A DNA stretch of 64,000 nucleotides, taken from contig JADMIL010000007.1 in the NCBI GenBank assembly GCA_015478645.1, positions 3,356 to 67,355 of the forward strand, in the 5' to 3' direction. Below, piece after piece: positions 47,294 through 62,657 of this stretch. Each line of letters begins with the position of its first letter. The stretch's first letter is position 1. The stretch comes from Candidatus Binataceae bacterium. GTDB taxonomy: Bacteria; Desulfobacterota; Binatia; Binatales; Binataceae. The notes under the pieces are model-generated. The model did not search any database and was not told the DNA's origin. It saw only the letters and a program-made list of their open reading frames with translations. The position numbers and the translations under genes are program-made.

Positions 47294-47315
47294 TCCGGAC
47301 CGGCGAGGCGTCCGT

Positions 47316-47359
47316 GCGCGCCGTCCGCAGCGATCGCCCGATCGCGGCGGACGGCGCGC
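47316..47359. repeat. Near-perfect 20-bp inverted repeat (gcgcgccgtccgcagcgatc ... gatcgcggcggacggcgcgc) immediately 3' of the amidohydrolase gene
   Basis: Read directly. There is one mismatch, a 4-nt loop and no U-tract. Confidence 0.45.
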
Positions 47360-47512
47360 CTCCATGTCGGACGCGGGTCACGGATGAATTCGCCGGGGAT
47401 GGCCGCCGTTGCTGCCGCGCGCGGCAATCGACCACGCGGCGCGGCGCGCGTGGCGCTTGACAGATTGTGCCGCTAACGCGAAGTACAACGAGATCGGGAA
47501 GGATGGTGGCAT

Positions 47513-48577
47513 ATGGAATTCGCACTCGCATATCCGGCACGTCCGGACGCCTGGAAAGACCTCGTAATCGCGGAAGAGCACGGTTTCACCCAGGCCTGGT
47601 TCTACGACTCGCAGATGCTCTACAGCGACGTCTACGTCTGCATGGCGATGGCGGCGGAACGGACCAAGCGGATCAAGCTGGCGACCGGCGTCGCGATACC
47701 GTCGAACCGCATCGAGCCGGTCACGGCGCATTCGATCGCGACGATCAATCTGCTCGCGCCGGGCCGGACTATCCTGGGCATCGGGAGCGGTTTCACCGGG
47801 CGCAATACGATGGGCTTGCCGCCGGTGCCGCTCGGCCAACTGCGCGATTACGTCGCGATGGTGCGCAAGCTGCTGCGCGGCGAAGAGGTGATGTATCGCG
47901 AAGGCGATCGCGAGCGCGCGATTCGCCTGCTCCATCAGGATTGCGGCTACATCAATCTGAAGGATCCGATTCCGATCCATATCGCGGCCGACGGACCCAA
48001 GGCGCTCGAACTGGCCGGTGAAATCGGCGACGGATGGTTGACCGTGCTGGCCGACGCGCCGCGCTATCGGCAGAAGTTCGACTCGGTGAAAAAGGGCGCC
48101 GCGCGCGCCGGCCGCTCAGTCAAGGATATGCCGACCGTGGTGCTGACCACCGGATGCGTCCTGCGCGACGGCGAATCCGCCACTTCGCCACGCGTGATCG
48201 AGCGCGTGGGGCCATTCGTGACCGTGTTTCTGCACGCGCTGTGGGAGCAATCGGCCGTCAGTGCGGGACTGCCGGCGCCGCTCGCCAAGCTCTGGGAGCG
48301 CTACCGCGACGAGTACATCCCGACCATGAAGACGCCCGCCGATCGCCGCTACCTCGAAATGCATGAGGGCCATCTCATCTATATGCGACCGGGCGAGGAC
48401 AAATATGTCAACGAGGCGCTGGTCTCGATGATGTCGCTGACCGGGCGCGGCGAAGAGATCATTGCGCGGCTCAAGGCGCTCGAGGCCGAGGGGCTCAAGC
48501 AGGTCGCGATCCAGGTGGTCAATAACGGGCGCGAGATGATCGAGGAATTCAGCCGTGAGGTGATCGCCAAGTATTAG
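47513..48577 (+). CDS. LLM-class oxidoreductase (F420-dependent / methylene-H4MPT reductase-like subfamily)
   Basis: The luciferase-like TIM barrel and a ggaagga RBS. Confidence 0.8.
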   Translation: MEFALAYPARPDAWKDLVIAEEHGFTQAWFYDSQMLYSDVYVCMAMAAERTKRIKLATGVAIPSNRIEPVTAHSIATINLLAPGRTILGIGSGFTGRNTMGLPPVPLGQLRDYVAMVRKLLRGEEVMYREGDRERAIRLLHQDCGYINLKDPIPIHIAADGPKALELAGEIGDGWLTVLADAPRYRQKFDSVKKGAARAGRSVKDMPTVVLTTGCVLRDGESATSPRVIERVGPFVTVFLHALWEQSAVSAGLPAPLAKLWERYRDEYIPTMKTPADRRYLEMHEGHLIYMRPGEDKYVNEALVSMMSLTGRGEEIIARLKALEAEGLKQVAIQVVNNGREMIEEFSREVIAKY

Positions 48578-48697
48578 CCGCGTCGCAGTGGCGGCACTGA
48601 CGCATCCGCGTGAGCGGGCGCGGCGGAGTGCAGCTCGATTTGACCGCGGGCGGCGCGCCGCGCGATAAACGGCGAGCAAGCCAGGAGGAAGCAGCCG

Positions 48698-49381
48698 ATG
48701 GGCAAATACTTCCGGTTCGAGAAGGCGGACGGCGTTGGACGGTTGACGTTCGACTATGCGGCCAAGCGCAATCCGTTCAACGAAGACAGTCTGAGCGAGC
48801 TCGAGGACAATCTGCTCGCCGCGCGCGAAGACGGCGAGGTTCGCGCGCTGGTCCTGACCGGCGTGGGCAATACCTTTTCGGCTGGCGCCGACCTGTCGCA
48901 CATGAAGGGCGTCACCGACGAGGCCGAGCGCCTGCGCCTGTTCAGCTCGGTCGCGCCGCGGCGCGGACGGCTGGTGCGCCGCGTGCTCGAGATGCTCACC
49001 CACCTGGAAATTCCGACTATCGCGGCGGTCAACGGATTCGCGGTGGGCGGCGGCTTTTTCCTGGTGCTCGCCTGCGATTTGCGCATCGCGGTCGCCGGCG
49101 CGGAGTTCTGGATGCCCGAGGTCGACCTGGGTGTGCCGGGTCCGCGCCGGCCCGAGCAATGGCTGGCGGCGCACGTCGGTGCGGCGCGCGCCAAAGAGAT
49201 CGTCATGACCTGCCGGCACTTCAAGGCCGAGGAGCTCTATCAATGGGGGCTGCTCAACCGCGTCGTGGCGAAGGACGAGCTGATGCCGGCGGCGATGGAG
49301 CTCGGACATTATCTGGCCTCGCGCAAGCCCTCCGCGGTGCGCCAGGCCAAGGCCAATATCAACGGTTATACGCTCGACTAG
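48698..49381 (+). CDS. Enoyl-CoA hydratase/isomerase (crotonase) family protein, paralog 1
   Basis: The crotonase oxyanion-hole region (LTGVGNTFSAGADL ... AAVNGFAVGGG) and a ggagga RBS. Confidence 0.8.
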   Translation: MGKYFRFEKADGVGRLTFDYAAKRNPFNEDSLSELEDNLLAAREDGEVRALVLTGVGNTFSAGADLSHMKGVTDEAERLRLFSSVAPRRGRLVRRVLEMLTHLEIPTIAAVNGFAVGGGFFLVLACDLRIAVAGAEFWMPEVDLGVPGPRRPEQWLAAHVGAARAKEIVMTCRHFKAEELYQWGLLNRVVAKDELMPAAMELGHYLASRKPSAVRQAKANINGYTLD

Positions 49382-49447
49382 AAGAGTGCGCGGCGCGCGT
49401 CGAGCGGCTCGCGAGGGCGGCTTGCGGGGCGGCGCAAAGGAAGCCCG

Positions 49448-50143
49448 ATGCCGGATAATTTTCTCGTCGCGAAGGACGGCCCGATCACCACGATCACGTT
49501 CAACCGGCCCGAGCGGCGCAACTGCCTCAACCGCGAGGTGATGACCGAACTCGAAGACCGGCTGCGCGCCGTGCGCAACGATCGCGGCGTGCGCGTGCTG
49601 ATCGTGACCGGCACCGGCGCCGCATTTTCGGCCGGCGCCGACATGACCGTGACCAAAGGCATCGCCGATGCGCAAGCGCGCGCGCGCGTATTTATGGCCA
49701 ACAATGACGGTGGGGCGCGGATGGTCGGGCGCATCTACGATCACGTCACGCGGCTCGACTGCATGACGATCGCCGCCGTCAACGGCTACGCGGTGGGCGG
49801 CGGATGGGCGATCGCGGCCGCGTTCGATTTTATCGTCGCCATCGAGGAGGCCGAATTCTGGGTGCCCGAGGTCGAACTGGGCGCGGCCTTCACCGGCGGT
49901 CCGGCGCTCGCGATGGCGGCGCGGCTCGGGCCCTGGCGCGCCAAGGACGCGATGATCCTGTGCCGCCATTTCAAGGCCCGCGAACTGCACGATTTGGGCA
50001 TGGTCAATCGGGTGGTCAAGCAGGGCGATCTGATTCCGGCGGCGCATAAGCTGGCGCAGGAATTGATTAAGCTGCCGCAAAAGGCGGCGACCCGGACCAA
50101 GCATTTCGTCGACGGCGTGTTTATCGGCGCGCGGCTCTATTAA
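49448..50143 (+). CDS. Enoyl-CoA hydratase/isomerase (crotonase) family protein, paralog 2
   Basis: The motifs VTGTGAAFSAGADM ... AAVNGYAVGGG and an aaggaag RBS. Confidence 0.8.
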   Translation: MPDNFLVAKDGPITTITFNRPERRNCLNREVMTELEDRLRAVRNDRGVRVLIVTGTGAAFSAGADMTVTKGIADAQARARVFMANNDGGARMVGRIYDHVTRLDCMTIAAVNGYAVGGGWAIAAAFDFIVAIEEAEFWVPEVELGAAFTGGPALAMAARLGPWRAKDAMILCRHFKARELHDLGMVNRVVKQGDLIPAAHKLAQELIKLPQKAATRTKHFVDGVFIGARLY

Positions 50144-50190
50144 GGATTCGGCGCGGGGCGCGCCCACGGCGCGCGAGGAGGGCTATTGCG

Positions 50191-50685
50191 ATGATCGTAC
50201 CGGACCGTATCGGCCACGTGGTGATCAAGGTGCGCGACCTCGCACGCTCGCGCCATTTCTATACCGACGTGATGGGCCTCGAAGTGATGATGGAGCTGCC
50301 GCAAATCAAGATGGCGTTCTTCGCCAGTCACGGCCGCGACCATCACGAACTCGCCTGCCTCGAGGTGGGCGAGGCCGCGCCGGCCCCGCCCAAGGGCGCG
50401 GTCGGGCTCTCGCATATCGCGTTTCGCCTGCGCGACGAAGAGCATCTGCGCGCCGCCTACCGCGAGCTCAAGGAAAAGCAGGTGCCGGTGCTCTCGACCA
50501 TCGACCACGGCATCACCAAGAGCATCTACCTGCGCGACCCCGACGGCTATCAAATTGAAGTATATTGCGACACATCGGCGCAAGACCAGGCGCATTTTCC
50601 CAACCCATACGGCGGGATGGAAAAGCTCGAGTTCGCAAAGGACGACCCCGGGATCGGCGACGCGATGCGCAAGCGGCTTAACTAG
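50191..50685 (+). CDS. VOC family protein (single-domain extradiol dioxygenase / glyoxalase-like)
   Basis: The motifs IGHVVIKV...LSHIAFRL and a ggaggg RBS. Confidence 0.75.
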   Translation: MIVPDRIGHVVIKVRDLARSRHFYTDVMGLEVMMELPQIKMAFFASHGRDHHELACLEVGEAAPAPPKGAVGLSHIAFRLRDEEHLRAAYRELKEKQVPVLSTIDHGITKSIYLRDPDGYQIEVYCDTSAQDQAHFPNPYGGMEKLEFAKDDPGIGDAMRKRLN

Positions 50686-50695
50686 GGAACCTCGG

Positions 50696-50809
50696 CACAA
50701 GGCTCTGCGGTCACCCTGAGCGCAGCGCATGGGTCCCGGATCCGGGATTCTTCGCCGCGCTCAGAATGACAACCTGACTTGTGCAGAGGTTCCCTAGACG
50801 ATTGTCGTG
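50696..50809. repeat. Nested palindromic intergenic repeat, copy C
   Basis: The termini are tagggaacctcggcacaaggctctgcggtcaccctgagcgcagcg ... cgctcagaatgacaacctgacttgtgcagaggttcccta. It shares the outer arms with copy B and the inner 'gctcagaatgaca' with copy A. Confidence 0.65.
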
Positions 50810-50865
50810 CGGCGCGCGCCGCGATCGCGCGGGCGCGTCAGATAACCAACGAACACGGGAGTTTC

Positions 50866-52299
50866 ATGGGTATCCGCAGCGGTAGCGAATTCGTCGAGAG
50901 CCTGCGCGACGCGCGCACGATCTACGCCAATGGCGAGCGCGTGCGCGACGTCACCGACTATCCGCCCTTTCGCGGCATCGTCGCCACGATGGCCTCGCTC
51001 TACGACCTTCAGCATCGGCGGCGCGACGAGCTGACCTTCCCTTCGCCGACCACCGGCGAGCCGGTCAGTGCGAGCTTTATCCTGGCCGACACGCTCGAAG
51101 CGGCCGAGCGCCGCGCGCGCGCCGAGGAGATTCGCGCCGACCATACCTTTGGCCTGATGGGGCGGATGCCCGACTTCTGCAATGCGATGGTCAGTGACGT
51201 GGTCACGGCGCGCGGCTACGTGGGCCGGCGCGAGCCGCGCTACGGCGACAATCTCCAGCGCTACTACGAGGAGGTGCGCGATCGCGACTGGTGCCTGACC
51301 CATACGCTGGTCGATCCGCAGATCGATCGATCGCGCGGGCCGGCCGAGCAGGACGATCCGTTTGCGGCGCTGCGCCTGGTGCGCGAGACCGACTCAGGAC
51401 TCATCGTGCGCGGCGCCAAGATGCTCTCGACGCTGGCGCCCTTTTCCAACGAGCTGTGGGTGGGACCGTTCTATCCGCGGCGTGCGGGCGAGGAGGCCTA
51501 CGCGCTCTGCTTCGCGATTCCCACGGCGACGCCGGGCCTCAAGTTCATCTGCCGCGAGACCTACGACGGCGGGCGCAGCAGCTTCGATCGTCCGCTCAGC
51601 TCGCGCTTTGACGAAGAGGACGCGCTGGCGGTCTTCGACGACGTGCTGGTGCCGTGGGAGCGCGTCTTCATCCATGGCGATATCGAGATCTTCAATGGCG
51701 TCCTGGCGCGCACGCCGGGCTACGCGATGTTGCAGGGTGCGATTCGCGGGATGGTCAAGCTGCGTTTTCTGGCCGGCCTCGCCTGTCATCTGGCGGACGC
51801 GATCGGGCGCAGCGCCCTGCCGCAGGTCCAGTCGCAGGTTGGCGAGCTGGTGGCCAACGCGGAGTTGGTCAGCGGACTGATCCGCGCCGGCACGCAGGAG
51901 GTCACCTGGGGCGCGACACGCGGCACGCCGCATCGCTCGCTCGCGGCGACGCTGTGGGTGATGATCCCGCAGGCGCAGATGCGCGCGGCCGAGGTCATCC
52001 GGCAGTTGAGCGGCAGCGGGCTTATCATGACGCCGACGGAAAAGGATTTCGCCAATCCCGAAATCGCCGGCTACCTGGAAAAATATCTGCGCGGCAAGGA
52101 CGTGAGCGCGCGCGATCGCGTGCAGCTCTTCAAGCTCGCCTGGGACATGATCGGCGAGCCGTTCGGCAGCCGCCAGTTGCAGTACGAATGGTTCTACTCG
52201 GGCGATCCGAATTTCACCCGCTCGCGCTTTTTCCGCTCGCCGATCACGCGCGACTTCAAGGCGATGGTCGATCGGCTGCTCAAGCCGCCCGGCGCCTGA
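50866..52299 (+). CDS. HpaB-family flavin-dependent monooxygenase (4-hydroxyphenylacetate 3-monooxygenase oxygenase component-like)
   Basis: The protein aligns along its length with HpaB (RPLSSRFDEEDALAVFDDVLVPWERVFI; LQYEWFYSG). An ATG at 50866 is preceded by a gggag RBS. The ORF-track extension would run through the repeat. Confidence 0.85.
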   Translation: MGIRSGSEFVESLRDARTIYANGERVRDVTDYPPFRGIVATMASLYDLQHRRRDELTFPSPTTGEPVSASFILADTLEAAERRARAEEIRADHTFGLMGRMPDFCNAMVSDVVTARGYVGRREPRYGDNLQRYYEEVRDRDWCLTHTLVDPQIDRSRGPAEQDDPFAALRLVRETDSGLIVRGAKMLSTLAPFSNELWVGPFYPRRAGEEAYALCFAIPTATPGLKFICRETYDGGRSSFDRPLSSRFDEEDALAVFDDVLVPWERVFIHGDIEIFNGVLARTPGYAMLQGAIRGMVKLRFLAGLACHLADAIGRSALPQVQSQVGELVANAELVSGLIRAGTQEVTWGATRGTPHRSLAATLWVMIPQAQMRAAEVIRQLSGSGLIMTPTEKDFANPEIAGYLEKYLRGKDVSARDRVQLFKLAWDMIGEPFGSRQLQYEWFYSGDPNFTRSRFFRSPITRDFKAMVDRLLKPPGA

Positions 52300-52310: not shown

Positions 52311-53795
52311 TCAGGCGCGCGCGGCGCGGCCGGCCGAGGTTCCCGCGAGGCGGCCGAAGACCGCACCCGACATCAGGCCGGTGCCCCCGGGATAGTTGAA
52401 GTAGAACAGTCCGCCGACCATTTCGCCCGCCGCGTAGAGCCCCGCGATCGGCGCCCCGTCGGTATCGATCACCGCGCCATTCCCGTCGATGCGCAGTCCG
52501 CCGAAGGTAAACGTGATGCCGCAGGTGATCGCGTAGGCCTCGAACGGCGGCGTGTCGAGCGCGTTGGCCCAGTGGCTCTTGTCGATCTTGAGCCCGCGGG
52601 TTGCGCGACCGTCCTTGACGTTGGGATTAAACGGCGTCGCGGTCGCCACGGCGGCGTTGAACTCGCCGACCTCGGCGAGAAAGCCGGCCGCATCGACGTC
52701 CTCGAGCTTGCCGGCCAGTTCCTCGAGCGTTGCGGCGGTCACCCGCGTCACGCGCTTGATCCGGTATTCGTCGCGCAGCAGATGAGCCACCTTGCGATCG
52801 AAGACCTGCCAGGCGAACTGCCCGGGCTGTTCGAGCACCGCGCGTCCATACTTGGCGTAGGTGTAATTGCGGAAGTCCGCGCCCTCGTCGACGAACCGGC
52901 GGCCGCGTGCGTTCACGATAATGCCGAACGGGTAGCTGTGCTTCTGAAAGCCGTCGCCGACGCTCAAGTCGCCGAACTCGGGCGCGTTGCGATCCCATCC
53001 CACCGCGTGGCATCCCGACCAGTTCCCGCAGGGCATCGCGCCAATCGCGAGCGCCATGCGCAGGCCGTCGCCGGTGTTGAAGCGGGTGCCGCGCACCTTG
53101 GCGAGATCCCAGCCCGGGCCGAGGTAGCGCGTGCGCCATTCGGCGTTGGCCTCGAAGCCGCCCGCGGCCAGGATCACGGCGCGCGCCGCGATCGGTGCGG
53201 TGCGTCCGCCGGCGCGCACGAGCACACCGCGCACTCCGCCGTCGTCATGGATCAGTTCGATCGCGCGGCTGGCGTACGCGACCTCGATCGCGTTGCGCTC
53301 GGCCGCGGCGTACAGCGCGTCGACCAGTCCCGGTCCGCCGCCCCACGCCTCGACCGTGAGCCCGCCCCAGAACTTGAACTTGCCGTCGACCTTGAACGCC
53401 TGCCGCCCGTAGATCGGCGCGAACCGCACGCCCTTGCCGCGCATCCAGAGCATCGTCTCGAGGCTCTGGCCGACCAGGGTTTCGGCCAGCGCCGGGTCGG
53501 TGCGGTATTGGGTGACGCGGCAGAGGTCGTCGTAAAACTGATCCTGGCCGTAGACGCCGAAGTCGGTGTTGGCCTTTTCCTCGTCGGTCAGATCGGGTAT
53601 GAGGCGCGCCAGATCGCCGATACCGTCGTACGCCACGCGCATCGCGCCCGCCGTGAAGCGGCTGTTGCCGCCGCGCTCGCCGGGCGGCGCGCATTCGAGG
53701 ACCAGCACGCTCGCCCCGCTCTCGCGCGCGGCCAGTGCGGCGCACAAGGCGGCATTGCCGCCGCCGACCACGATTACGTCATACGCCGAAGCCAT
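52311..53795 (-). CDS. TcuA-like FAD-dependent flavoprotein (tricarballylate dehydrogenase family)
   Basis: An N-terminal FAD fold YDVIVVGGGNAALCAALAARESGASVLVLE and a TcuA-like architecture. Confidence 0.8.
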   Translation of the reverse strand: MASAYDVIVVGGGNAALCAALAARESGASVLVLECAPPGERGGNSRFTAGAMRVAYDGIGDLARLIPDLTDEEKANTDFGVYGQDQFYDDLCRVTQYRTDPALAETLVGQSLETMLWMRGKGVRFAPIYGRQAFKVDGKFKFWGGLTVEAWGGGPGLVDALYAAAERNAIEVAYASRAIELIHDDGGVRGVLVRAGGRTAPIAARAVILAAGGFEANAEWRTRYLGPGWDLAKVRGTRFNTGDGLRMALAIGAMPCGNWSGCHAVGWDRNAPEFGDLSVGDGFQKHSYPFGIIVNARGRRFVDEGADFRNYTYAKYGRAVLEQPGQFAWQVFDRKVAHLLRDEYRIKRVTRVTAATLEELAGKLEDVDAAGFLAEVGEFNAAVATATPFNPNVKDGRATRGLKIDKSHWANALDTPPFEAYAITCGITFTFGGLRIDGNGAVIDTDGAPIAGLYAAGEMVGGLFYFNYPGGTGLMSGAVFGRLAGTSAGRAARA

Positions 53796-53867
53796 CTATG
53801 CAGTTCCGTCCTTGCCGGGGTGTGCCGCGGCCGCGCCGCGCCGATCGATCGCGCACAATTATGGCGA

Positions 53868-54788
53868 TCACTTGCGCGCGCGCAGGTCCGGCGGCACGGC
53901 GCTATGCGCGATCGACTCGTCGAGCGCCTCGTAATCCGCGTAGCCGATAGTTTCGTACAGATCCGCGCGCGTCTGCATCCGCTCGAGCATCGCGGAGGCG
54001 CCGCCGTCGCGCATGATTGTGCCGTACAGATCGCCGATCGCATGCGCCGCGACGCGCAATGACGAGACCGGCCAGATGACCAGCTTGAAGCCGAAGGCGG
54101 CGAACTCGCCGGCGCTGAAATACGGCGTGCGGCCAAACTCGGTCATGTTGGCGAGCAGCGGGGCGTCGATCGCGCCGGCGAATTTCCGGAACATTTCGGC
54201 GGTCGTGAGCGCCTCGGGGAAGATCACGTCGGCGCCGGCCGCGCGATAGAGCCGGGCGCGCGCGATCGCCGCGTCGAGGCCCTCGACGCCCGCCGCGTCG
54301 GTCCGCGCGATCACCTTGAGATGGCGCCGCGCGCGCACCGCCGCCGCGACCTTGGCCGCCATCTCGTCGGGCGCGACCAGCCGCTGGTCGTTCAGATGGC
54401 CGCATTTTTTTGGCAGTTGCTGGTCCTCGAGTTGAATCGCCGCGGCACCGGCGTCTTCGAGTTCGCGCACCGTGCGCATCACGTTGAGCACGCCGCCATA
54501 GCCGGTATCGCCGTCGACGATCAGCGGAATCGCCGCCGCGCGCGCGATTGTGCGGGTGAACAGGCAAAGCTCGTCGAGGCCCAGAATCCCCAGGTCGGCG
54601 AGACCCAGGCTCGCGCTTAACGCCGCACCCGACAGATAGATCGCCTTGAAGCCGGCGCGCATCGCGAGCATCCCAGCAAGAGCGTTGTGCGCGCCGGGAA
54701 CCATGACGATCCCCGGTGCACGCCACAATTGCGCGAGCCGTTCGCCCGGCGGCGCGTGGTCCGCCCGGTCGTTGGTTAGCCAGGTCAT
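53868..54788 (-). CDS. Isocitrate lyase / PEP mutase family lyase (2-methylisocitrate lyase-like)
   Basis: The family signature K-K-C-G-H (PKKCGHL) and DGDTGYGG. Confidence 0.8.
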   Translation of the reverse strand: MTWLTNDRADHAPPGERLAQLWRAPGIVMVPGAHNALAGMLAMRAGFKAIYLSGAALSASLGLADLGILGLDELCLFTRTIARAAAIPLIVDGDTGYGGVLNVMRTVRELEDAGAAAIQLEDQQLPKKCGHLNDQRLVAPDEMAAKVAAAVRARRHLKVIARTDAAGVEGLDAAIARARLYRAAGADVIFPEALTTAEMFRKFAGAIDAPLLANMTEFGRTPYFSAGEFAAFGFKLVIWPVSSLRVAAHAIGDLYGTIMRDGGASAMLERMQTRADLYETIGYADYEALDESIAHSAVPPDLRARK

Positions 54789-54918
54789 CGCGAAGCCACT
54801 CCCGCGCGCGTCCAGTGGCGGAGATTTTTGCCGCCGCGCGCTTTGTGCAATTATTCGGTCGGCGGGGCGATACAGTCAAATCGCACCGGTCAATCGGATG
54901 GAGAAGTAAGCGAAAGCT

Positions 54919-56391
54919 ATGCCGGACTACGACGTTATCGTGGTGGGTGCGGGCAACGCCGCGCTGGCGGCCAGCGTAGCCGCGCGCAATGCCGGTGCGG
55001 AGCGCGTCCTGGTGCTGGAAAAGGCGCCCGAGGCGATGCGCGGCGGCAATACGCATTACAGCGGCGGCCTGCTGCGCATCGCGTTCGACCGGGTCGACGA
55101 GATTTTGCACCTGGTGCCCAAGGCGCGCGAGCTGCCGGGCTTCGTCGAAGGGATCGAAGCCTACCCGCGCGACGCTTTCATGGCCGACCTCAAACGGATG
55201 ACGGCGAACCGCACCGATCCCGAGCTGGCGGAAATTCTGGTCGCCAATTCCTACGCGACCGCATCCTGGATGGCCGACCAAGGGATCCGCTTCGAGCCGG
55301 CGATCTCGCTCGGCGCGGTCCGCGTCGGCAACCTGATCAAATGGCCCAAGGGCGCGATTATCCGCGCCGTGCATGAGGGCGTGGGGCTCTCGCGGATGTG
55401 GTTCACGGCGGCCGAGCGCAAGGGCGTGACGATTCGCTACGGCGCCGCCGCGACGCGCCTGGTGCTCGACGGCGCGGGCCGCGTATGCGGTGTGGCGGTG
55501 CGCGACGCCACCGGCCTCCACGAAGTCGCGGGGCGCGCAATCGTGCTCGGCTGCGGCGGCTTCGAAGCCAACGCCGCGTGGCGCGCGCAATATCTCGGCC
55601 GCCCGTGGGACCATGCCAAGGTGCGCGGCACCCCGCATAACCAGGGTGACGGGCTGCGCATGGCGTGCGAGATCGGCGCGATGCCGTGGGGGCAATGGAG
55701 CGGATGCCACGCGACGCCGATCAATGCCGAGGCGCCGCCCTTCGGCGATCGCCAGCTCACCGACAAGACCAATCGCCTCTCGTATCCGTACGGCGTGATG
55801 ATCAACCGGGCGGGCCTGCGCTTCGTCGACGAGGGTGAGGACCAGGCGTTTTTCACCTACGCCAAGTTCGGCGGGATAATTCTCAACCAGCCCGGCGGCG
55901 TGGCGTATCAGATTTTCGATTCCAAGGTGCGCCATCTGCTCGAGCCGCGCTATGCGACCAGCGATCCGATCGCGGCGGCGAGCCTCGCCGAACTGGTCGA
56001 TCGGATCGACGTCGATCGCGAGGCTGCGCGGCGCACACTCGAGCAGTATAACGCGGCGGCCGGCGAGGGCTTGTTTAATCCGGGCGATCGCGACGGGCTG
56101 GCGACGCGCGGCCTGGCGCTGGGCAAATCCAACTGGGCGCAGCGGCTCGACACGCCGCCGTTCCTCGCGTGGCCGGTCACCGGCGGCATCACGTTCTCGT
56201 TCGGCGGCCTCAAGATCAACGATCGCGCGCAGGTCGTCGGCACCAACTGGGAGCCAATCGCGGGACTCTATACGTGCGGCGAGATGGTCGGCGGGCTGTT
56301 CCACAGCAACTATCCCGGCGGCTCGGGCCTGATGTCGGGAGCGGTCTTCGGCCGCATCGCGGGCGCCAGCGCGGCGCGCGACGGAAAATAG
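54919..56391 (+). CDS. TcuA-like FAD-dependent flavoprotein, second paralog
   Basis: The motif YDVIVVGAGNAALAASVAARNAGAERVLVLE. It is paralogous to the protein at 52311-53795. Confidence 0.8.
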   Translation: MPDYDVIVVGAGNAALAASVAARNAGAERVLVLEKAPEAMRGGNTHYSGGLLRIAFDRVDEILHLVPKARELPGFVEGIEAYPRDAFMADLKRMTANRTDPELAEILVANSYATASWMADQGIRFEPAISLGAVRVGNLIKWPKGAIIRAVHEGVGLSRMWFTAAERKGVTIRYGAAATRLVLDGAGRVCGVAVRDATGLHEVAGRAIVLGCGGFEANAAWRAQYLGRPWDHAKVRGTPHNQGDGLRMACEIGAMPWGQWSGCHATPINAEAPPFGDRQLTDKTNRLSYPYGVMINRAGLRFVDEGEDQAFFTYAKFGGIILNQPGGVAYQIFDSKVRHLLEPRYATSDPIAAASLAELVDRIDVDREAARRTLEQYNAAAGEGLFNPGDRDGLATRGLALGKSNWAQRLDTPPFLAWPVTGGITFSFGGLKINDRAQVVGTNWEPIAGLYTCGEMVGGLFHSNYPGGSGLMSGAVFGRIAGASAARDGK

Positions 56392-56407
56392 CGGGAGCAC
56401 TCGGGCG

Positions 56408-57601
56408 ATGCGGCAAGTCGGCTTGCGCGCGGTCTTCATGCGCGGCGGCACGAGCAAGGCGGTAATCTTCCGCGCCGCGGACTTGCCGCGCGATCGCGCG
56501 GATTGGACGCCAATCTTCCTCGGCGTGATCGGCAGCCCCGACCGCAACGGCCGCCAGCTTGACGGGATGGGCGGCGGGCTCTCGTCGCTCTCCAAAGTAT
56601 GCGTGGTCGGGCCGCCGAGCTGCGTGGACGCCGACGTCGATTACACCTTCGCGCAGGTCGCGATCGGCGACGCGGCGGTCGATTACAGCGGCAATTGCGG
56701 CAACATGTCGTCGGCGATCGGGCCGTTCGCGATCGATGAAGGAATCGTCGCGGCGGCGGCCGAAGGCGCGGCGACCGTGCGCATCCATAATACCAACACG
56801 CACAAGATCATCGTCGCGCGCTTTGCGGTCGCCGGCGGACGCGCCGCCGTCGATGGCGATTTCGTGCTGCCGGGCGTGGCTGGCACGGGCGCGCCAGTGC
56901 GCCTGGATTTTCTCGATCCGGGCGGCGCGGGCACCGGGCGGCTGCTGCCCACCGGCAATCCGTCCGATGAACTCGAAGTTCAGGTAAATCTACAAAATGG
57001 CACGACGGCGGCGGAACGCGTGACGGTCTCGATGGTCGATGCGGCGAATCCCTGCGTGTTCGTCGCGGCCGCGGCGCTCGGCGCGACCGGACTCGAGATG
57101 CCCGGCGAGCTCGAGGCGCGGCCCGAACTCCTGCGCCGGCTCGAGGCGATCCGGATTGCCGCGAGCCTGCGTATGGGAATCGCGCGCAGCGCCGCCGACG
57201 CGGCGCGCAAGCCCAGCATCCCCAAGGTCGCGATGGTCACCGGGCCGCGCGCCGCGACGACCCTGGCCGGCGATCGCCTCGCCGCGGACGACGCCGACCT
57301 GACCGTGCGCATGATCTCGATCGGCCAGCCGCATCGCGCGGTGCCGCTGACCGGCGCGATGTGCCTCGCGGTGGCGTCGCGGATCGATGGCAGCGTGGTC
57401 AATCGCCTCGCGCGGCGGCCCACCCCGCCCGCCGACGCGGTGCGGATTGCGCAGCCCTCGGGGCTGACCGTGGTCGGTGCGGCGGTGCGACCGATCGACG
57501 GTGGCTGGCACGCCGACCATGCGACGGTCTATCGGACCGCGCGCCGCCTGATGGAAGGAACGGTCTTCGTCCGCGCCGCCGCGTTCGCCGGCCTCGCATA
57601 A
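56408..57601 (+). CDS. PrpF-family isomerase (2-methylaconitate / 3-methylitaconate isomerase-like)
   Basis: The motifs VFMRGGTSKAVIF, GSPD..G.Q.DGMGGG and YSGNCGN are diagnostic of the PrpF/AcnD-accessory family. Confidence 0.8.
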   Translation: MRQVGLRAVFMRGGTSKAVIFRAADLPRDRADWTPIFLGVIGSPDRNGRQLDGMGGGLSSLSKVCVVGPPSCVDADVDYTFAQVAIGDAAVDYSGNCGNMSSAIGPFAIDEGIVAAAAEGAATVRIHNTNTHKIIVARFAVAGGRAAVDGDFVLPGVAGTGAPVRLDFLDPGGAGTGRLLPTGNPSDELEVQVNLQNGTTAAERVTVSMVDAANPCVFVAAAALGATGLEMPGELEARPELLRRLEAIRIAASLRMGIARSAADAARKPSIPKVAMVTGPRAATTLAGDRLAADDADLTVRMISIGQPHRAVPLTGAMCLAVASRIDGSVVNRLARRPTPPADAVRIAQPSGLTVVGAAVRPIDGGWHADHATVYRTARRLMEGTVFVRAAAFAGLA

Positions 57602-57814
57602 GCTGACCGCGTGACCCCGCAGCGATGCGGGATTCGGGCGGGCGGAACGGGCGCTGCGGACTGGCGGGTCCGGATTTGCTTGCATCGCGCGGCCCAGTTT
57701 GGGCAATCTCAAACCCTCATGGGGACGATTTTTCACAGCGCGGCGCGGACTGGCGGGTTTCACCTTCGAGCGGCGCGGGCAGTCGTGCCGGCCGGCCGCG
57801 CGGGCTAGATCGCG

Positions 57815-59395
57815 ATGGCCGCGGCACCTTCGCAAAACGCGTCGCCGCCGGAGCATGGGCCGGCCGCGGTCAACAAATGGTTGATCGCGGTCGCCGTGAT
57901 GCTCGCGACGATCATGGAGGTGCTCGACACCACCATCGCCAACGTCGCGCTGCTGCATATCCGCGGCAGCCTGTCGGCGGGCGTGGACGAGGCGGCGTGG
58001 GTGCTGACGTCGTACATCGTGGCCAACGCGATCGTGATCCCGCTGACCGGCTGGTGCGGCGCGTTCTTTGGCCGCAAGCGCTTCTTCACCTTCTCGATTC
58101 TGCTGTTCGTCACCAGCTCGCTGCTGGCCGGGGCGTCGCCCAACCTGCCGACGCTGATCTTCTTCCGCGTGCTCCAAGGGATCGGCGGTGGCGCGATGAT
58201 GCCAATGTCGCAGGCGATCCTGATGGAGACCTTTCCGCCCGAGCAGCAGGCGGTCGCGATGGCGGTGTGGGGCGTTGGCATGATGCTCGGGCCGGTGATG
58301 GGGCCGGTGCTCGGCGGATGGATCACCGACAACTACAGTTGGCGCTGGATCTTCTATATCAACGTGCCGATCGGACTGATCGCGGCGACCATGGTCGCGG
58401 TCTTCGTGCACGATCCGGATTACATCCGGCGCGGGATCAAGAAGATCGACTGGTGGGGCATCATCTTTCTGGCGATTGGCGTCGGGTTTATCCAGGTGAT
58501 GCTCGACAAGGGCGATCGGCTCGACTGGTTCAACTCCAAGCTGATCGTCGAGCTGACAGTCGTCGGCACCATCGGCGTGGCACTCTTTTTGATCCGCGAG
58601 ATGCGCACCCGGGAGCCGGTGGTCGATTTGCGAGTGCTCAACAATCGCACCTTCGCGGTCGGCACGGTCTTCACCACGATCGTGATGTTCGCGATGTACG
58701 GCACGTACGTGCTGATCCCGCTCTACTGCCAGCAAATCGCCGGTTACACGCCGCTGCAGGCGGGCTTCGTGCTGTCGATCCAGAGCTTCGGCACGTTCGC
58801 GTCGATCATGCTCGCCGGGCGCCTGTTCACGATGATGGATCCGCGCGTGCTGATCGCTGGCGGCTGCCTGATTGCGGGGTACGGCACGTGGGGGATGGCG
58901 AACTTCAATCCGCAGATCGATTTCTGGAATATCGCGATGCCCGGGATCTACCGCGGGATCGGCTCGGGCCTGATCTTCATCCCGATTACCACGCTGAGCC
59001 TGGGTGCCGTCTCGAACGAGGAGATGGGCAACGCGTCGGGGCTGTTCAACATGGTGCGGTCGGTGGGCGGCAGTATCGGGATTGCGATCCTGGTCGCGAT
59101 GGTCAGCCGGCATACGCAAATCCATCAGAGTTACCTGAGCGCGCGAATCGATCCGTTCCGCTTCCAGGAATGGAGCCATTCCAACCCCGGCATCACGGCC
59201 CAATACAACAGCTTCACCCTGCACGGGGCGGCGCCGTACCTGGGGATGATCTACCAGGAGGTGCAGCGCCAGGCGGCGATCCTGGCGTATGTCGACGACT
59301 TCCGGCTGATTTCCTATATTTTTCTGTTCCTGACGCCGCTCGCCTTTGTGATGCGGCGGCCGGCGAAGATGGGCGCCGCGCCGGCCGTGCATTGA
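57815..59395 (+). CDS. MFS transporter, DHA2 (EmrB/QacA) family, 14 TM
   Basis: N-terminal LIAVAVMLATIMEVLDTTIANVALLHI is typical of DHA2. Length 526 aa. Confidence 0.85.
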   Translation: MAAAPSQNASPPEHGPAAVNKWLIAVAVMLATIMEVLDTTIANVALLHIRGSLSAGVDEAAWVLTSYIVANAIVIPLTGWCGAFFGRKRFFTFSILLFVTSSLLAGASPNLPTLIFFRVLQGIGGGAMMPMSQAILMETFPPEQQAVAMAVWGVGMMLGPVMGPVLGGWITDNYSWRWIFYINVPIGLIAATMVAVFVHDPDYIRRGIKKIDWWGIIFLAIGVGFIQVMLDKGDRLDWFNSKLIVELTVVGTIGVALFLIREMRTREPVVDLRVLNNRTFAVGTVFTTIVMFAMYGTYVLIPLYCQQIAGYTPLQAGFVLSIQSFGTFASIMLAGRLFTMMDPRVLIAGGCLIAGYGTWGMANFNPQIDFWNIAMPGIYRGIGSGLIFIPITTLSLGAVSNEEMGNASGLFNMVRSVGGSIGIAILVAMVSRHTQIHQSYLSARIDPFRFQEWSHSNPGITAQYNSFTLHGAAPYLGMIYQEVQRQAAILAYVDDFRLISYIFLFLTPLAFVMRRPAKMGAAPAVH

Positions 59396-59646: not shown

Positions 59647-62073
59647 ATGGCGACTTCGAGCAGTAACGAGCCCTGGGGGCTGGGCAAGTACATTCTTCAG
59701 TATCGCGCGGCGATTGGCCTTACACTGATTGGCATCACGATCTTCATGGGCTATTGGGCGGCGAACGTGCGGATCGCGACCCGGTTCGAAAACTTCTTCC
59801 CGACCGGCCATCAAGACACCCTGCTGTATCATAAGTACCAGAATCAGTACGGCGGGGCGCAATCGCTCTATCTGCTGCTGAGGGTCAAGCACGGCGACAT
59901 CTTCAACTCGCAGACGCTGCACAAAATCCAGGACATCACGCGCGACGTCAATATACTGCCGGGCGTCGATCATAACGAAATCTTCTCGCTGGCTTCCTAT
60001 CGCGTTGCTTACAGCCACGCGATTCCGGGCGCGCTGATTTCGGACAACTACATGTATCCGAAGGTGCCCGACACGGCGGCCGGCGTCGAAGATCTGCGGC
60101 ACACCGTAATGGCGCATCGCGGTCCGGTCACGGGCCTGATTACCTACGACGACAAGGGTGCGCTGATTACCGCGACCTTTAACGAGCAGGGCCTCGACTA
60201 CAAGAAGCTGTTCGACGATATCCAGGGCATCATCAAAAAATACCAGGACGCCGACACGGAGATCTTCGTGGCGGGCCAGCCGGTCATCTCGGGCTGGGGC
60301 TATTACTACCTGACGCAGATCAAGGTGATTTTCCTCATCGCGATCACGCTGATGCTGATAATTCTCTATCTGAGCATCGGCGAACGCAGCAGTTGGTGGG
60401 CGCCCATCCTGACCGGCACCTTCTCGGCGATCTGGGGTCTCGGTTTCGTCAGCCTGATGGGCTACGACTTCGACCCGGTGATGCTGGTCATCCCGTTCAT
60501 CCTGACCGCGCGCGACTTGAGCCACGGGATCCAGTGGCAGGGGCGCTACTACGACGAGCTTGATCGGCTCGACGACAAGTTGCTGGCCTGCGCGACGACG
60601 ACCGATGTCATGCTGCCGCCGGGATTGCTCTCGATCCTGGCCGACATCGCGGGGATCATTTTCATCTCGTTCGGCGGGATCCCGGTGCTCAAGGAAATCG
60701 GCGTGGGCGGCGCGATGTGGCTGGCGGCCAGCCTCACGATGGTCTTCGTCTTCCAGCCGATCTTCATGAGCTATCTGCCGCGCCCGCGGATTCGCGAACG
60801 CAGTTGGCTGCGCCGGCGCCAGCTCAGCACGCGGCGGACGGTCTTCGGTTCGTTTGTCGACTGGGTGATCAGGATTCCGGTGACGCCGGGGGTCACGCGC
60901 ACTGCGCTGCTCGCCGGTGGCGCGCTGTTTATCGTCTTTGGCCTGGTATCGGGCCAGCGCGCGCGGATTGGCTATGAGACGCCGGGCACGCCGCTCTATC
61001 GGCAGGATTCCAAGGTCAACAAGGATATCGCGGTAATCGGCCAATACTTCCCGACCGACGTCGGGTGGGTGGTGATGTCGTCGCCGGACTATCCCGATCC
61101 GCAGTCCACGATCAGCCCGGCGGTGCTCCGGATGACCGACGATCTGGGCAACTATCTGGTGAGCCGGGGCGACGCGGTGGGCGTGATCTCGTTCGCCAAC
61201 GCCGGGATCATGCCGCTCAACATGATGTTCCACAACGGGTACCCGAAGTACCTGAGCATCCCGAACGGAACCGAGCTGGGCGGCAACCTGTGGTACATGT
61301 TCTGGGCGGGCACCGCGCCGGGCGAAATGGAGCGCTTCTTTGCCCATTCGCCGAAGATGACCAACGCGTGCATCCGCGTGTTGCTGCCGGATCATACCTA
61401 CTCGCGGCTCAACAAGGTGCGGGCCGATATCCAGCAATTCATCAACGAGCGGGTGAATACCGATCCCGCCCTGGCCAAGGTGAAACTGACCTACTTCGGT
61501 GGTGAAGCGGGCCTGTACCTGGCGGCCAACGACGTGCTCTACCGGCTGGATTTCATCAACCTGACGTTCGTGCTGCTGGTGATCTTTCTTTGCTGCGCGT
61601 TTACCTTCTGGTCGCCGACCGCCGGCGCGCTGTTTATCATCTCGTGCGTGATGGCAAATTTCGGCGCCTTCGTTTACATGAATGCGCGCAATATCGGCCT
61701 GACTATCGATACCATCCCGGTGATCTCGCTGGGGATCGGGCTCGGCGTCGATTACGGGATATACGTAGTCGCGCGAATTCGCGACGAGGTGATGGGTGGC
61801 GCGACCCTCGAGGACGCGATCACGACCGCGCTGCGATCGACCGGCGCGTCGGTCTTCAGCACCTTCGCGGTGATGATTGGCGGGATCGTGCCGTGGGCCT
61901 TTTCACCGCTGCTGTTCCACAACGAGATGAGCGTGCTGCTGATCTTCCTGATGGGCACCAACATGGTCGCCGGTGTGCTGATTCTGCCGGCGTACATCGC
62001 ATGGCGCCGTCCGCGCTTTATCATGCGCTACGCCAATCCGCCCCGCGCGGGCGCGAGTGCCGCGGCACTCTGA
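59647..62073 (+). CDS. RND-superfamily / MMPL-family membrane transporter (HpnN-like architecture)
   Basis: An 808-aa protein with two six-TM bundles, each preceded by a large periplasmic loop. A ggagag RBS. Confidence 0.8.
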   Translation: MATSSSNEPWGLGKYILQYRAAIGLTLIGITIFMGYWAANVRIATRFENFFPTGHQDTLLYHKYQNQYGGAQSLYLLLRVKHGDIFNSQTLHKIQDITRDVNILPGVDHNEIFSLASYRVAYSHAIPGALISDNYMYPKVPDTAAGVEDLRHTVMAHRGPVTGLITYDDKGALITATFNEQGLDYKKLFDDIQGIIKKYQDADTEIFVAGQPVISGWGYYYLTQIKVIFLIAITLMLIILYLSIGERSSWWAPILTGTFSAIWGLGFVSLMGYDFDPVMLVIPFILTARDLSHGIQWQGRYYDELDRLDDKLLACATTTDVMLPPGLLSILADIAGIIFISFGGIPVLKEIGVGGAMWLAASLTMVFVFQPIFMSYLPRPRIRERSWLRRRQLSTRRTVFGSFVDWVIRIPVTPGVTRTALLAGGALFIVFGLVSGQRARIGYETPGTPLYRQDSKVNKDIAVIGQYFPTDVGWVVMSSPDYPDPQSTISPAVLRMTDDLGNYLVSRGDAVGVISFANAGIMPLNMMFHNGYPKYLSIPNGTELGGNLWYMFWAGTAPGEMERFFAHSPKMTNACIRVLLPDHTYSRLNKVRADIQQFINERVNTDPALAKVKLTYFGGEAGLYLAANDVLYRLDFINLTFVLLVIFLCCAFTFWSPTAGALFIISCVMANFGAFVYMNARNIGLTIDTIPVISLGIGLGVDYGIYVVARIRDEVMGGATLEDAITTALRSTGASVFSTFAVMIGGIVPWAFSPLLFHNEMSVLLIFLMGTNMVAGVLILPAYIAWRRPRFIMRYANPPRAGASAAAL

Positions 62074-62351
62074 TCGCCCGCTCGCAAGAGTCAGTAGCGG
62101 TCTTGGTCGTTGGTACGCCGTCAATCGCGGCCGGCGATGGGGGTCGCGTCGGTGGCGATGCGTATTGACGTTGAGTGGCGTTTATACGGGACAATTAGCT
62201 AACTTGGCGTAGTTGGAAGGGACTGCTAGATGGGCCGGTCGCCGGCGCATCGCGGGCCGCGCGGTTGCGACCGCGAAGCGACGGCTATATCCTGTCGCTA
62301 CGCACTTTTTCACGTCAGCAAGCTGATTTTCAGCCGGAACAACTGAGCGAG

Positions 62352-62657
62352 TTGACTACGCCTGCGACAATTTCGATCGATTCGGTCGTGGCGGTTGCCG
62401 CGGATCAGATCTCGTGCGATCTCGACGGCGAGACGGCGATCCTCAATCTCAAGAGCGGCACCTATTACGGGCTCGATCCGGTGGGCGCGACGGTCTGGAG
62501 TCTGCTCGCGACGCCAACCACCGTGCGCGCGATCGCGGATTTGATGATCGAACGTTACGAGGTCGACCGCGCGCGCTGCGAACGCGACCTGATCGAACTG
62601 CTCGGCAAGCTCGCGGAGCGCGGCCTGATCGAGGTGCGCGATGGGCGCGCCGGCTAA
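62352..62657 (+). CDS. PqqD-family RiPP recognition protein (lasso peptide biosynthesis B1)
   Basis: The pattern ISCDLDGETAILNLKSGTYYGLDPVGATVWSLL...TVRAIADLMIERYEVD...LIELLGKLAERGLIEV matches PqqD. A TTG at 62352 gives about 101 aa. A TTG at 62265 is the alternative. Confidence 0.7.
   Translation: MTTPATISIDSVVAVAADQISCDLDGETAILNLKSGTYYGLDPVGATVWSLLATPTTVRAIADLMIERYEVDRARCERDLIELLGKLAERGLIEVRDGRAG

Follow-up and report, generated by a model that had tools for sequence, protein, structure and literature searches.

A TcuB-less block of TcuA-like, PrpF-like and PrpB-type genes in Candidatus Binataceae, possibly a catabolic module for tricarballylate-type acids

Introduction

The tail of nicotinate fermentation in Eubacterium barkeri consists of the isomerase Mii (PDB 3g7k), the hydratase DmdAB and the lyase Dml, and the dimethylmaleate hydratase of this pathway belongs to the LeuCD type. 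To our knowledge, the known substrates of PrpF-type allylic isomerases are all 2-substituted butenedioates. PrpF itself is established as an enzyme that moves a double bond by an allylic shift, so that aconitase and PrpB can act next; a lysine and a cysteine have been shown to be required in the Shewanella oneidensis enzyme, and the paper on PrpF pointed out that many prpF homologues sit in operons without known function. TcuA oxidizes tricarballylate to cis-aconitate and is re-oxidized by the 4Fe-4S protein TcuB. In the tcuRABC locus of Salmonella, TcuA is an FAD dehydrogenase that works with an Fe-S membrane partner, TcuB (PMC2606687), and Bacillus assimilates trans-aconitate by means of tarAB/tarR, with tbrAB as a further described system (PMC11495376). 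Here we analyze a block of four genes that resemble parts of these systems, at positions 52311–57601 of a 64,000-nt stretch of DNA (hereafter the window; all coordinates are window positions) from contig JADMIL010000007.1 of assembly GCA_015478645.1, a Candidatus Binataceae bacterium of the uncultured group Candidatus Binatota.

An initial annotation of this DNA, made from the letters alone, had described the block as a non-canonical cluster of two TcuA-family flavoproteins, a lyase of the isocitrate lyase (ICL)/PEP-mutase family and a PrpF-family protein. All four open reading frames (ORFs) were recovered at these coordinates, and both the non-canonical character of the cluster and its conserved association stood up, whereas the proposed resemblance of the lyase to Dml and the transport role given to a neighboring major facilitator superfamily (MFS) gene did not. 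We propose, with a probability of roughly 0.45, that the four genes form a conserved, TcuB-independent catabolic module that takes a polycarboxylic acid of the tricarballylate type as the free acid and joins the tail of the 2-methylcitrate cycle. We found no published description of the TcuA-like/PrpF-like association in the literature on TcuA, methylitaconate/itaconate isomerase and dimethylmalate/methylisocitrate lyase.

Results

Two divergent operons conserved in Binataceae and beyond

We drew the gene map by applying a filter on third-position G+C (GC3) to all ORFs around the cluster. The G+C content across the window is 61–71%, and all four ORFs of the block have GC3 values of 0.85–0.88, as coding sequences do. 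The block is made up of two divergent two-gene operons. In the leftward operon (minus strand), the lyase (53868–54788, 306 aa) comes first and TcuA-like 1 (52311–53795, 494 aa) second, 72 bp apart; in the rightward operon (plus strand), TcuA-like 2 (54919–56391, 490 aa) is followed after only 16 bp by the PrpF-like gene (56408–57601, 397 aa). Between the operons lies a divergent intergenic region of 130 bp (54789–54918).

This order, lyase/TcuA-like 1 diverging from TcuA-like 2/PrpF-like, was kept in every Binataceae locus that we compared (L003–L005 from metagenome assemblies and L014–L019 from a species-genome collection), with proteins 67–84% identical and flanks that change from locus to locus; in two loci from metagenome-assembled genomes (MAGs), one gene fell under the coverage filter. 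A protein identical to the PrpF-like protein of the window is also annotated in the Candidatus Binataceae MAG GCA_027317005.1.

A wider scan, in which PrpF-like orthologues were aligned with one genome per species, produced 80 loci at 55–75% identity, about six of them from Binataceae and the others from Alpha- and Betaproteobacteria, a Thermodesulfobacteriota MAG and further groups. Co-occurrence was counted with tblastn and from an all-against-all clustering of the predicted proteins. A TcuB-less TcuA-like gene was present in 34 of the 80 loci and lay within 2 kb of the PrpF-like gene in 27, at a median distance of 170 bp. It stood directly upstream on the same strand, as TcuA-like 2 does, in 13 loci, including Alpha- and Betaproteobacteria and the Thermodesulfobacteriota MAG, and directly downstream on the same strand in seven, of which six carry a gene of the TcuA-like 1 type and come mostly from a Novosphingobium group. 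PrpD-family genes occurred in 31/80 loci and ICL/PEP-mutase lyases in 24/80; the TcuA-like gene, the PrpF-like gene and a lyase were found jointly in 19/80, among them Bradyrhizobium, Novosphingobium and the alphaproteobacterial MAG locus L086. AcnA/AcnD-like genes (2/80), PrpC (1/80) and TcuB (0/80) were rare or absent. The initial annotation had made its reading depend on whether the four-gene adjacency recurs in other genomes; the order is kept in Binataceae and the association extends across phyla. Such recurrence, in independent genomes from several phyla, goes far beyond what chance adjacency would give.

Individual loci show how the parts are recombined. L086 carries TcuA1 (72%) / TcuA2 (62%)-PrpF (59%)-lyase (41%), and cultured Bradyrhizobium (L026, L037) carry TcuA2 and a GntR gene / PrpF-PrpB (57–59%), with a PrpD-family gene and a Liv-type ABC transporter added in L037. 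In Hydrogenophaga, the order is a tripartite tricarboxylate transporter (TTT) solute-binding protein, TcuA-like, LeuC, LeuD, a second TTT solute-binding protein and PrpF-like; Paracoccus pantotrophus has TRAP, PrpD, TcuA2 and TcuA1, and also PrpD, PrpF and lyase. Members of the PrpF-like clade lie beside PrpD and a lyase in Microvirga and beside PrpB in Sagittula. In Rhodococcus opacus, we found a lyase, AcnA, a citrate symporter, PrpF-like and TTT, and in Shinella a canonical tcuB-tcuA / acnA ... PrpF-like arrangement. Cultured loci that include LeuCD, PrpD, AcnA, TTT or a citrate symporter thus supply the hydratase that is missing from the window or point to a tricarboxylate. Other accessory genes of the related loci were considered as clues to the substrate and set aside as too varied to indicate a single one: short-chain dehydrogenase/reductase, FMN-dependent hydroxyacid dehydrogenase, NAD-epimerase, class II aldolase, aldehyde dehydrogenase, amidase, reductase of the old yellow enzyme type and CoA-transferase.

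The lyase groups with PrpB

The lyase belongs to the PEP_mutase/ICL family and passed the PrpB equivalog model TIGR02317 with 388 bits (cut-off 354). The K-K-C-G-H motif reported for it is present as K127-K-C-G-H131. Among solved structures, methylisocitrate lyases ranked first, with 317 bits for the Bacillus-type enzyme and 229–233 bits for those of E. coli and others, and petal death protein (168 bits) and Aspergillus niger DML (161 bits) came well below them. In an alignment to E. coli PrpB (1mum), the lyase keeps S45, D58, D85, D87, E115, K121, C123 and H125, and also R158, F186, E188, N210, T212, P236, R241 and R270, with Ile in place of L234. In the PrpB structures, these residues comprise Mg ligands, the catalytic loop Cys, substrate ligands and a methyl pocket, in which Phe/Leu(Ile)/Pro house the methyl group of pyruvate.

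The closest annotated homologues in a plasmid collection are 57–63% identical to the lyase and include PrpBs of textbook prp operons. Identity is 59–63% to the PrpBs of Paracoccus versutus (prpD-prpC-prpB), Novosphingobium (acnD-prpF-prpC-prpB-acnA) and Sagittula (PrpF-adjacent), and about 61% to that of the prpD-prpC-prpB operon of Pseudochrobactrum. A PrpR-type regulator accompanies prpD-prpC-prpB in P. versutus and Pseudochrobactrum; around the lyase studied here, tblastn found no operon with prpC, prpD/acnD and PrpR in the 64-kb window. Its sequence marks the lyase as a true orthologue of PrpB that lies outside a prp setting. It had been likened to 2,3-dimethylmalate lyase, and the TIGR02317 match, the 59–63% identities and the retained active-site residues of E. 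coli PrpB place it with PrpB instead. As a PrpB orthologue, it would most simply convert 2-methylisocitrate, as the last intermediate, to pyruvate and succinate, which favors a tricarboxylate ending in 2-methylisocitrate over dimethylmalate or C5-dicarboxylate options.

The PrpF-like protein falls in its own clade

The PrpF-like protein has a full-length PrpF fold (PF04303, 373 bits). It fell under the cut-off of 440 of both available equivalog models, scoring 302 bits with TIGR02334 (PrpF) and about 301 bits with NF033377 (4-oxalomesaconate tautomerase). K63 and C97 align with K73 and C107 of S. oneidensis PrpF, and both are invariant in 12 diverse relatives. Its identity to Mii (42%), PA0793 (41%) and PrpFs, including those of S. 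oneidensis and Novosphingobium (39–40%), makes it roughly equidistant from all of these. In a neighbor-joining tree, Mii branches outside the whole 55–75% identity clade of PrpF-like orthologues, and the nearest relatives of the window protein are mostly TcuA-adjacent where flanking DNA suffices to judge. These comparisons indicate that the protein belongs to a distinct PrpF-family clade.

Two specific identities were considered and rejected. As LigU (4-oxalomesaconate tautomerase), the protein failed NF033377 and matched LigU with 171 bits, and the neighboring Amidohydro_2 protein is not LigJ-like. As Mii proper, it is only 42% identical, Mii lies outside the clade, the window has no LeuCD-type gene and the lyase is of the PrpB type. 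A homology-based assignment to the TbrA/TarA type of aconitate isomerase found no support, identity being 28% to the PrpF-domain protein encoded on plasmid pCT281 of Bacillus thuringiensis CT-43, which we presume to be TbrA. Given the relatives that lie next to tcuAB or acnA, aconitate activity of the PrpF-like protein is possible.

The flavoproteins are TcuA-like

TcuA-like 1 and TcuA-like 2 match PF00890 (FAD_binding_2) with 153 and 129 bits, and both N-termini read YDVIVVG(G/A)GNAAL, a GxGxxA dinucleotide motif. They are paralogues, 50% identical to each other and 36–41% identical to a canonical, tcuB-adjacent TcuA from Shinella; for TcuA-like 1, the latter value is 41% by alignment and 39% by tblastn. 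Both passed the broad TcuA model NF006130 (596 and 540 bits, cut-off 369) and failed the TcuA/CobZ equivalog TIGR02485 (284 and 257 bits, cut-off 372). A set of residues is invariant in both flavoproteins and in tcuB-adjacent TcuA, and both differ from canonical TcuA in two insertions and in three conserved motifs, TYAK(Y/F)G, GITF(T/S)FGG and NYPGG. Among solved structures, soluble fumarate reductases and urocanate reductase come closest. Of four fumarate-reductase residues (flavocytochrome c3), R402, H504 and R545 are not conserved and H365 apparently is; the alignment gives no handle on the substrate. On this evidence, we regard the flavoproteins as TcuA-like and not as canonical TcuA.

The statement that TcuA normally pairs with TcuB holds within the canonical clade. 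Beyond it, TcuB-less TcuA-like genes are common, and the annotation pipeline PGAP, through NF006130, calls many of their products 'FAD-dependent tricarballylate dehydrogenase TcuA'. They occur with TTT binding proteins, PrpD genes, SsuA-type ABC transporters, a ComA-like gene or divergent electron-transfer flavoprotein (ETF) genes, and this naming is probably a systematic over-annotation.

Orthologues of TcuA-like 1 are 78–83% identical in Binataceae loci and 64–67% identical in Hydrogenophaga and on plasmids of P. versutus and Bradyrhizobium. Two of the plasmid relatives (65–67%) lie beside SsuA-type ABC transporter genes: L008 11171–17021 (P. versutus pTAV3) and L094 4216–13198 (Bradyrhizobium guangxiense p53363). 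One of these loci has a ComA-like gene of the phosphosulfolactate synthase family, and the other has divergent ETF alpha/beta genes with a CoA lyase and a transferase. A route from 3-sulfopropionate via sulfoacrylate to sulfolactate has been reported (PMC11489063). These contexts hint that some 'TcuA' proteins might be dehydrogenases of sulfonates, as analogues of succinate, for which ETF may be the acceptor.

Canonical partners and a hydratase are absent

No tblastn match to TcuB, AcnA, AcnD, PrpC, PrpD, LeuC/D, PrpR or ETF was found anywhere in the 64-kb window; for TcuB, the query was the tcuA-adjacent Shinella protein, which gave no match in the window at E <= 1e-3. The absence of TcuB, AcnD, PrpC and PrpD, first noted for the block itself, thus extends to the whole window, and with it the possibility that a TcuB or AcnD gene just outside the block restores a canonical pathway falls away. 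What had escaped notice is that the pathway as encoded also lacks a hydratase, which must be encoded elsewhere in Binataceae.

A putative operator in the divergent promoter region

A conserved motif, TTTGTGCAATTAT, lies at 54842–54854 in the divergent intergenic region. Seven of eight aligned Binataceae intergenic regions keep it, some with one or two altered positions, and the eighth (L017) has a copy outside the aligned block. At the same position, it takes the form TTTGTGCAAT(T/G)AT in L003, L004, L005, L014, L015 and L019, and it occurs elsewhere in the longer L017 spacer, where the 1.28 kb between the lyase and TcuA-like 2 (L017 7219–8500) hold a coding sequence of the luciferase-like monooxygenase type, an insertion in the divergent promoter region. 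A sigma-70-like site for the leftward operon has its -35 element at 54874–54879 and its -10 element at 54850–54855 (TTGACT-18-AATAAT, 10/12 positions matched), and TTTGTGCAATTAT overlaps the -10 element of this putative promoter. The motif may serve as an operator. In Binataceae, the cluster has no regulator gene next to it; in Bradyrhizobium and Novosphingobium, a GntR-family gene lies inside it.

A consensus scan gave a weak candidate for a terminator-like hairpin at 57657–57672 on the plus strand, 3' of the PrpF-like gene, of a kind no commoner than in shuffled sequence. An Rfam scan of 44–64 kb was negative for riboswitches and all other RNA families.

Flanking genes

The gene downstream of the block (57815–59395, plus strand), identified earlier as a DHA2-type MFS gene, is indeed of the DHA2/EmrB family (TIGR00711, 462 bits, cut-off 230), and an MMPL/HAE3 gene follows at 59647–62073 (plus strand). 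It had been suggested to import or export the acid. This does not fit an EmrB-type efflux pump that in relatives is linked to TetR and MMPL/HAE3, is absent from most related loci and here follows the weak terminator-like hairpin. The MMPL/HAE3 gene travels with the MFS gene, most Binataceae loci have no MFS gene at this position, and we do not count the MFS as a member of the module. In L003 (11262–12005) and L005 (11205–11864), a divergent TetR gene lies between the PrpF-like and MFS genes; the corresponding 213-bp gap of the window (57602–57814) holds no TetR remnant that we could find, and with TetR lost the efflux pump may be deregulated. After the MMPL gene, lasso-peptide-type genes run onward to the window end, beginning with a PqqD-like gene (62265–62657) and a transglutaminase-core gene (62641–63168). 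In the relatives L003 (16878–19628) and L005 (16581–19425), an asparagine-synthase-like gene comes next in this set.

Upstream, the neighbor of TcuA-like 1 is an HpaB-like gene (50779–52299) and not a transporter. It ends a plus-strand operon (46160–52299) that comprises Amidohydro_2 (46160–47293), a luciferase-like protein of the F420 type (47513–48577), two short crotonase-fold proteins of 227 and 231 aa (48698–49381 and 49448–50143) and a VOC/glyoxalase protein of 164 aa (50191–50685) that weakly matches the N-terminal half of HpaD. No flavin reductase partner for HpaB was seen in this operon. Synteny of VOC and HpaB with the four-gene block is confined to Binataceae. Neither of two candidates from this operon held up as a missing enzyme: Amidohydro_2 as a LigJ-like hydratase (PtmU3 172, DitZ 109 and LigJ 26 bits), and HpaB as a 4-hydroxybutyryl-CoA dehydratase (348 bits to Thermus thermophilus HpaB vs 87–118 to the dehydratase/isomerases).

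Three further features of the window were recorded. A DUF433 protein and the DUF5615/PIN-like protein after it (44551–45276) are likely a toxin-antitoxin pair; the two families also occur near a TcuA-like gene on a plasmid of Deinococcus deserti (L095), which is probably coincidental. An intradiol (catechol/chlorocatechol 1,2-) dioxygenase-family gene on the minus strand (37247–38122), under the equivalog cut-offs, and a RecD2-type helicase gene on the plus strand (39025–41196) are unconnected to the cluster.

Discussion

The recurrence together of a flavoprotein from the succinate dehydrogenase/fumarate reductase superfamily, an allylic isomerase, PrpD, LeuCD or aconitase hydratases and a lyase for 2-substituted isocitrates suggests one logic: desaturate a substituted succinate or a tricarballylate, shift the double bond, hydrate, and cleave to a 2-oxoacid and a carboxylic acid. 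We rate this generic scheme as somewhat more probable than its specific tricarboxylate version ending in the PrpB tail. In the specific version, the substrate would be tricarballylate and/or an alkyl homologue such as 2-methyltricarballylate (butane-1,2,3-tricarboxylate). By analogy with TcuA and succinate dehydrogenase, TcuA-like 1 and 2 would desaturate the succinyl part to an aconitate-type enoate. The PrpF-like protein, with its conserved Lys and Cys, would then catalyze a 1,3-allylic or cis-trans shift to cis-aconitate or 2-methyl-cis-aconitate, much as PrpF acts after AcnD. Water would be added by a hydratase that the block does not encode, presumably the housekeeping aconitase in Binataceae, and in other lineages by a PrpD-family, LeuCD-like or AcnA enzyme encoded within the cluster; the PrpB orthologue would cleave 2-methylisocitrate or a close analogue to pyruvate and succinate. 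The last step is the best supported of these, because of orthology and active-site conservation. If the flavoprotein attacked the unsubstituted CH-CH2 side of 2-methyltricarballylate, 4-methylaconitate would result. Were the substrate plain tricarballylate, the TcuA-like/PrpF-like pair would suffice to make cis-aconitate by way of the trans isomer, which fits the many loci that have the pair without a lyase and the frequent tricarboxylate transporters. Most other lineages have a single TcuA-like flavoprotein, and we speculate that the two in Binataceae may serve different substrates or stereoisomers. Neither TcuB nor ETF is encoded nearby to accept their electrons. Of the branched C5/C6 di- or tricarboxylate pathway put forward in the initial annotation, with the flavoproteins as dehydrogenases, the dehydrogenase-isomerase-lyase logic is still the most economical account of the conserved neighbors, while the PrpB-type lyase disfavors the dicarboxylate options.

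Several points weigh against our proposal. Neither the window nor any of the Binataceae loci yielded a hydratase gene. A methylisocitrate lyase is unnecessary for plain tricarballylate, and we know of no recognition of 2-methyltricarballylate as an abundant natural compound. The lyase of many non-Binataceae loci, L086 included, is of another subfamily (33–44% identity). Among solved structures, the PrpF-like protein matches Mii, a dicarboxylate isomerase, best (287 bits, vs 243–251 for PrpFs). The closest cultured relatives of TcuA-like 1 (64–67%) sit in differing contexts (SsuA-type ABC, ComA-like, ETF), so specificity cannot be transferred by identity in this family.

The match to Mii is also an argument for a dicarboxylate pathway, in which methylsuccinate or 2,3-dimethylsuccinate would be converted to mesaconate, citraconate or dimethylmaleate, with the PrpF-like protein acting as Mii (42% identity) and the lyase as Dml. 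Hydrogenophaga, in which a LeuCD-type hydratase accompanies the TcuA-like and PrpF-like genes, speaks for it as well, and the presence of two dehydrogenases would be accounted for by the R and S enantiomers of a chiral alkylsuccinate. We nevertheless consider this pathway unlikely. The lyase falls in the PrpB orthologous group, passing TIGR02317 at 59–63% identity to known PrpBs; it retains R158, N210, T212, R241 and R270 and the F186/L234(I)/P236 pocket; and it scores only 161 bits against A. niger DML and 168 against petal death protein, compared with 317 and 233 for methylisocitrate lyases. Moreover, Mii lies outside the 55–75% identity clade, and it is TTT transporters, AcnA and citrate symporters that recur in related loci.

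Since the lyase is indistinguishable by sequence from canonical PrpB, and since PrpF and PrpB are consecutive partners in the AcnD-type cycle, the two genes could instead complete an ordinary 2-methylcitrate (propionate) cycle, with prpC and acnD/prpD elsewhere in a genome that we see through 64 kb and with the TcuA-like genes as unrelated neighbors by descent. Such a split is quite unlikely in view of the tight spacing of TcuA-like and PrpF-like genes (16 bp here and 6–110 bp in 20 other genomes), which extends across Binatota, Alpha- and Betaproteobacteria and the Thermodesulfobacteriota MAG. PrpC (1/80) and AcnD/AcnA-like genes (2/80) seldom accompany them, and the PrpF-like protein is about 40% identical to canonical PrpFs and failed TIGR02334.

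The constancy of the upstream neighbors raises a further alternative, that the four genes are the lower branch of the adjacent aromatic/CoA-ester operon and process a polycarboxylic ring-cleavage product in the manner of LigU, LigJ and LigK. VOC and HpaB, usually with Amidohydro_2, adjoin the block in every Binataceae locus while other flanks vary; LigU and GalD fall within the PrpF family; and HpaB is close to the T. thermophilus 4-hydroxyphenylacetate 3-hydroxylase (348 bits). We regard this as very unlikely, however: HpaB and VOC occur in 0/74 non-Binataceae loci, the PrpF-like protein scores 171 bits to LigU vs 287 to Mii, Amidohydro_2 resembles the CoA-ester-acting PtmU3 (172 bits) and DitZ (109) and not the hydratase LigJ (26), and the HpaB and TcuA-like 1 genes are convergent and so belong to separate transcription units. 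Finally, the TcuA-like proteins as soluble enoate reductases (e.g. trans-aconitate to tricarballylate) serving as an electron sink or in detoxification, with the efflux pump exporting the product, would suit their closest solved structures and the efflux-type MFS downstream, but this is highly improbable given the lack of an electron-input domain or partner, the unconserved R402, H504 and R545, the unconserved MFS adjacency, and the C-C lyase and uptake systems (TTT, TRAP, ABC) of other genomes, which indicate catabolism.

Returning to the tricarballylate-type module, a broader version is possible, although we hold it doubtful: an undescribed pathway widespread in soil Binatota and Alpha- and Betaproteobacteria, in which a TcuB-independent flavoprotein and a dedicated PrpF-type isomerase would give CoA-free entry of alkyl-tricarballylates, or related polycarboxylates, to the methylcitrate tail. 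The Binataceae paralogues would divide substrates or stereoisomers between them, and in some lineages an Fe-S-independent hydratase of the PrpD type would replace the tricarballylate-sensitive aconitase. If the four-gene module works as proposed, it would give a function to TcuB-less 'TcuA' genes, to an unassigned PrpF-family clade and to PrpB copies outside propionate operons, all mislabelled by pipelines, and it would add a route by which soil bacteria, uncultured Binatota included, mineralize plant- or microbe-derived polycarboxylic acids. The module is tractable, as it is carried by cultured Bradyrhizobium, Novosphingobium and Paracoccus strains. Among these carriers are Bradyrhizobium sp. 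McL0616 (NZ_CP188255.1, 1.663–1.685 Mb; L037), B. iriomotense SZCCT0346 (L065), Novosphingobium sp. JCM 18896 (L078) and P. pantotrophus DSM 11072, on pPAN3 (L007).

Comparison with known systems

In the LigU-LigJ-LigK sequence of protocatechuate 4,5-cleavage, a PrpF-family 1,3-allylic isomerase likewise converts a tricarboxylic enoate, which is then hydrated and split at a C-C bond to give pyruvate. The cluster differs from this sequence in the low LigU score (171 bits), in a neighboring Amidohydro_2 with 26 bits to LigJ and in an ICL/PEP-mutase lyase where LigK is a class II aldolase. Bacillus tar/tbr shares with the window a PrpF-superfamily isomerase gene followed by an MFS transporter gene. 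In the window, though, the isomerase is 28% identical to the pCT281 protein, our presumed TbrA, there is no LysR regulator, and the MFS is an EmrB-type efflux pump of 14 transmembrane segments, tied to TetR and MMPL in relatives and not conserved in its adjacency.

The tail of the E. barkeri pathway combines three superfamilies in the order PrpF fold, aconitase/LeuCD-type hydratase and ICL/PEP-mutase lyase, which is the order expected here, and Mii is the top structural match of the PrpF-like protein. The cluster departs from it in having a PrpB orthologue that is not Dml-like, no hydratase or mutase, and an isomerase clade that excludes Mii; as far as can be told, the Binataceae host is not such a fermenter. 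With Salmonella tcuRABC, the cluster has in common the NF006130 match, the residues invariant with TcuA, and the tricarboxylate transporters and aconitase of related loci. The differences are an identity of 36–41%, failure of TIGR02485, the insertions and altered motifs, the absence of TcuB, the presence of two paralogues and the coupling to a PrpF-like isomerase.

The AcnD/PrpF version of the 2-methylcitrate cycle, as in S. oneidensis and in the acnD-prpF-prpC-prpB-acnA cluster of Novosphingobium sp. P6W, has a PrpF-family isomerase with the same Lys and Cys and a PrpB orthologous to the lyase (59%). The cluster lacks PrpC, AcnD, PrpD and PrpR, and its isomerase is about 40% identical and under the PrpF cut-off. 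Entry to the pathway apparently depends on a flavoprotein dehydrogenase, in place of a synthase and a dehydratase. The expected logic is otherwise the same: once the isomerase has shifted the 'wrong' aconitate isomer, aconitase would add water and PrpB would release pyruvate and succinate. The chemistry proposed for the cluster is thus a recombination of known steps of the tcu, prp and nicotinate pathways and involves no new kind of chemistry.

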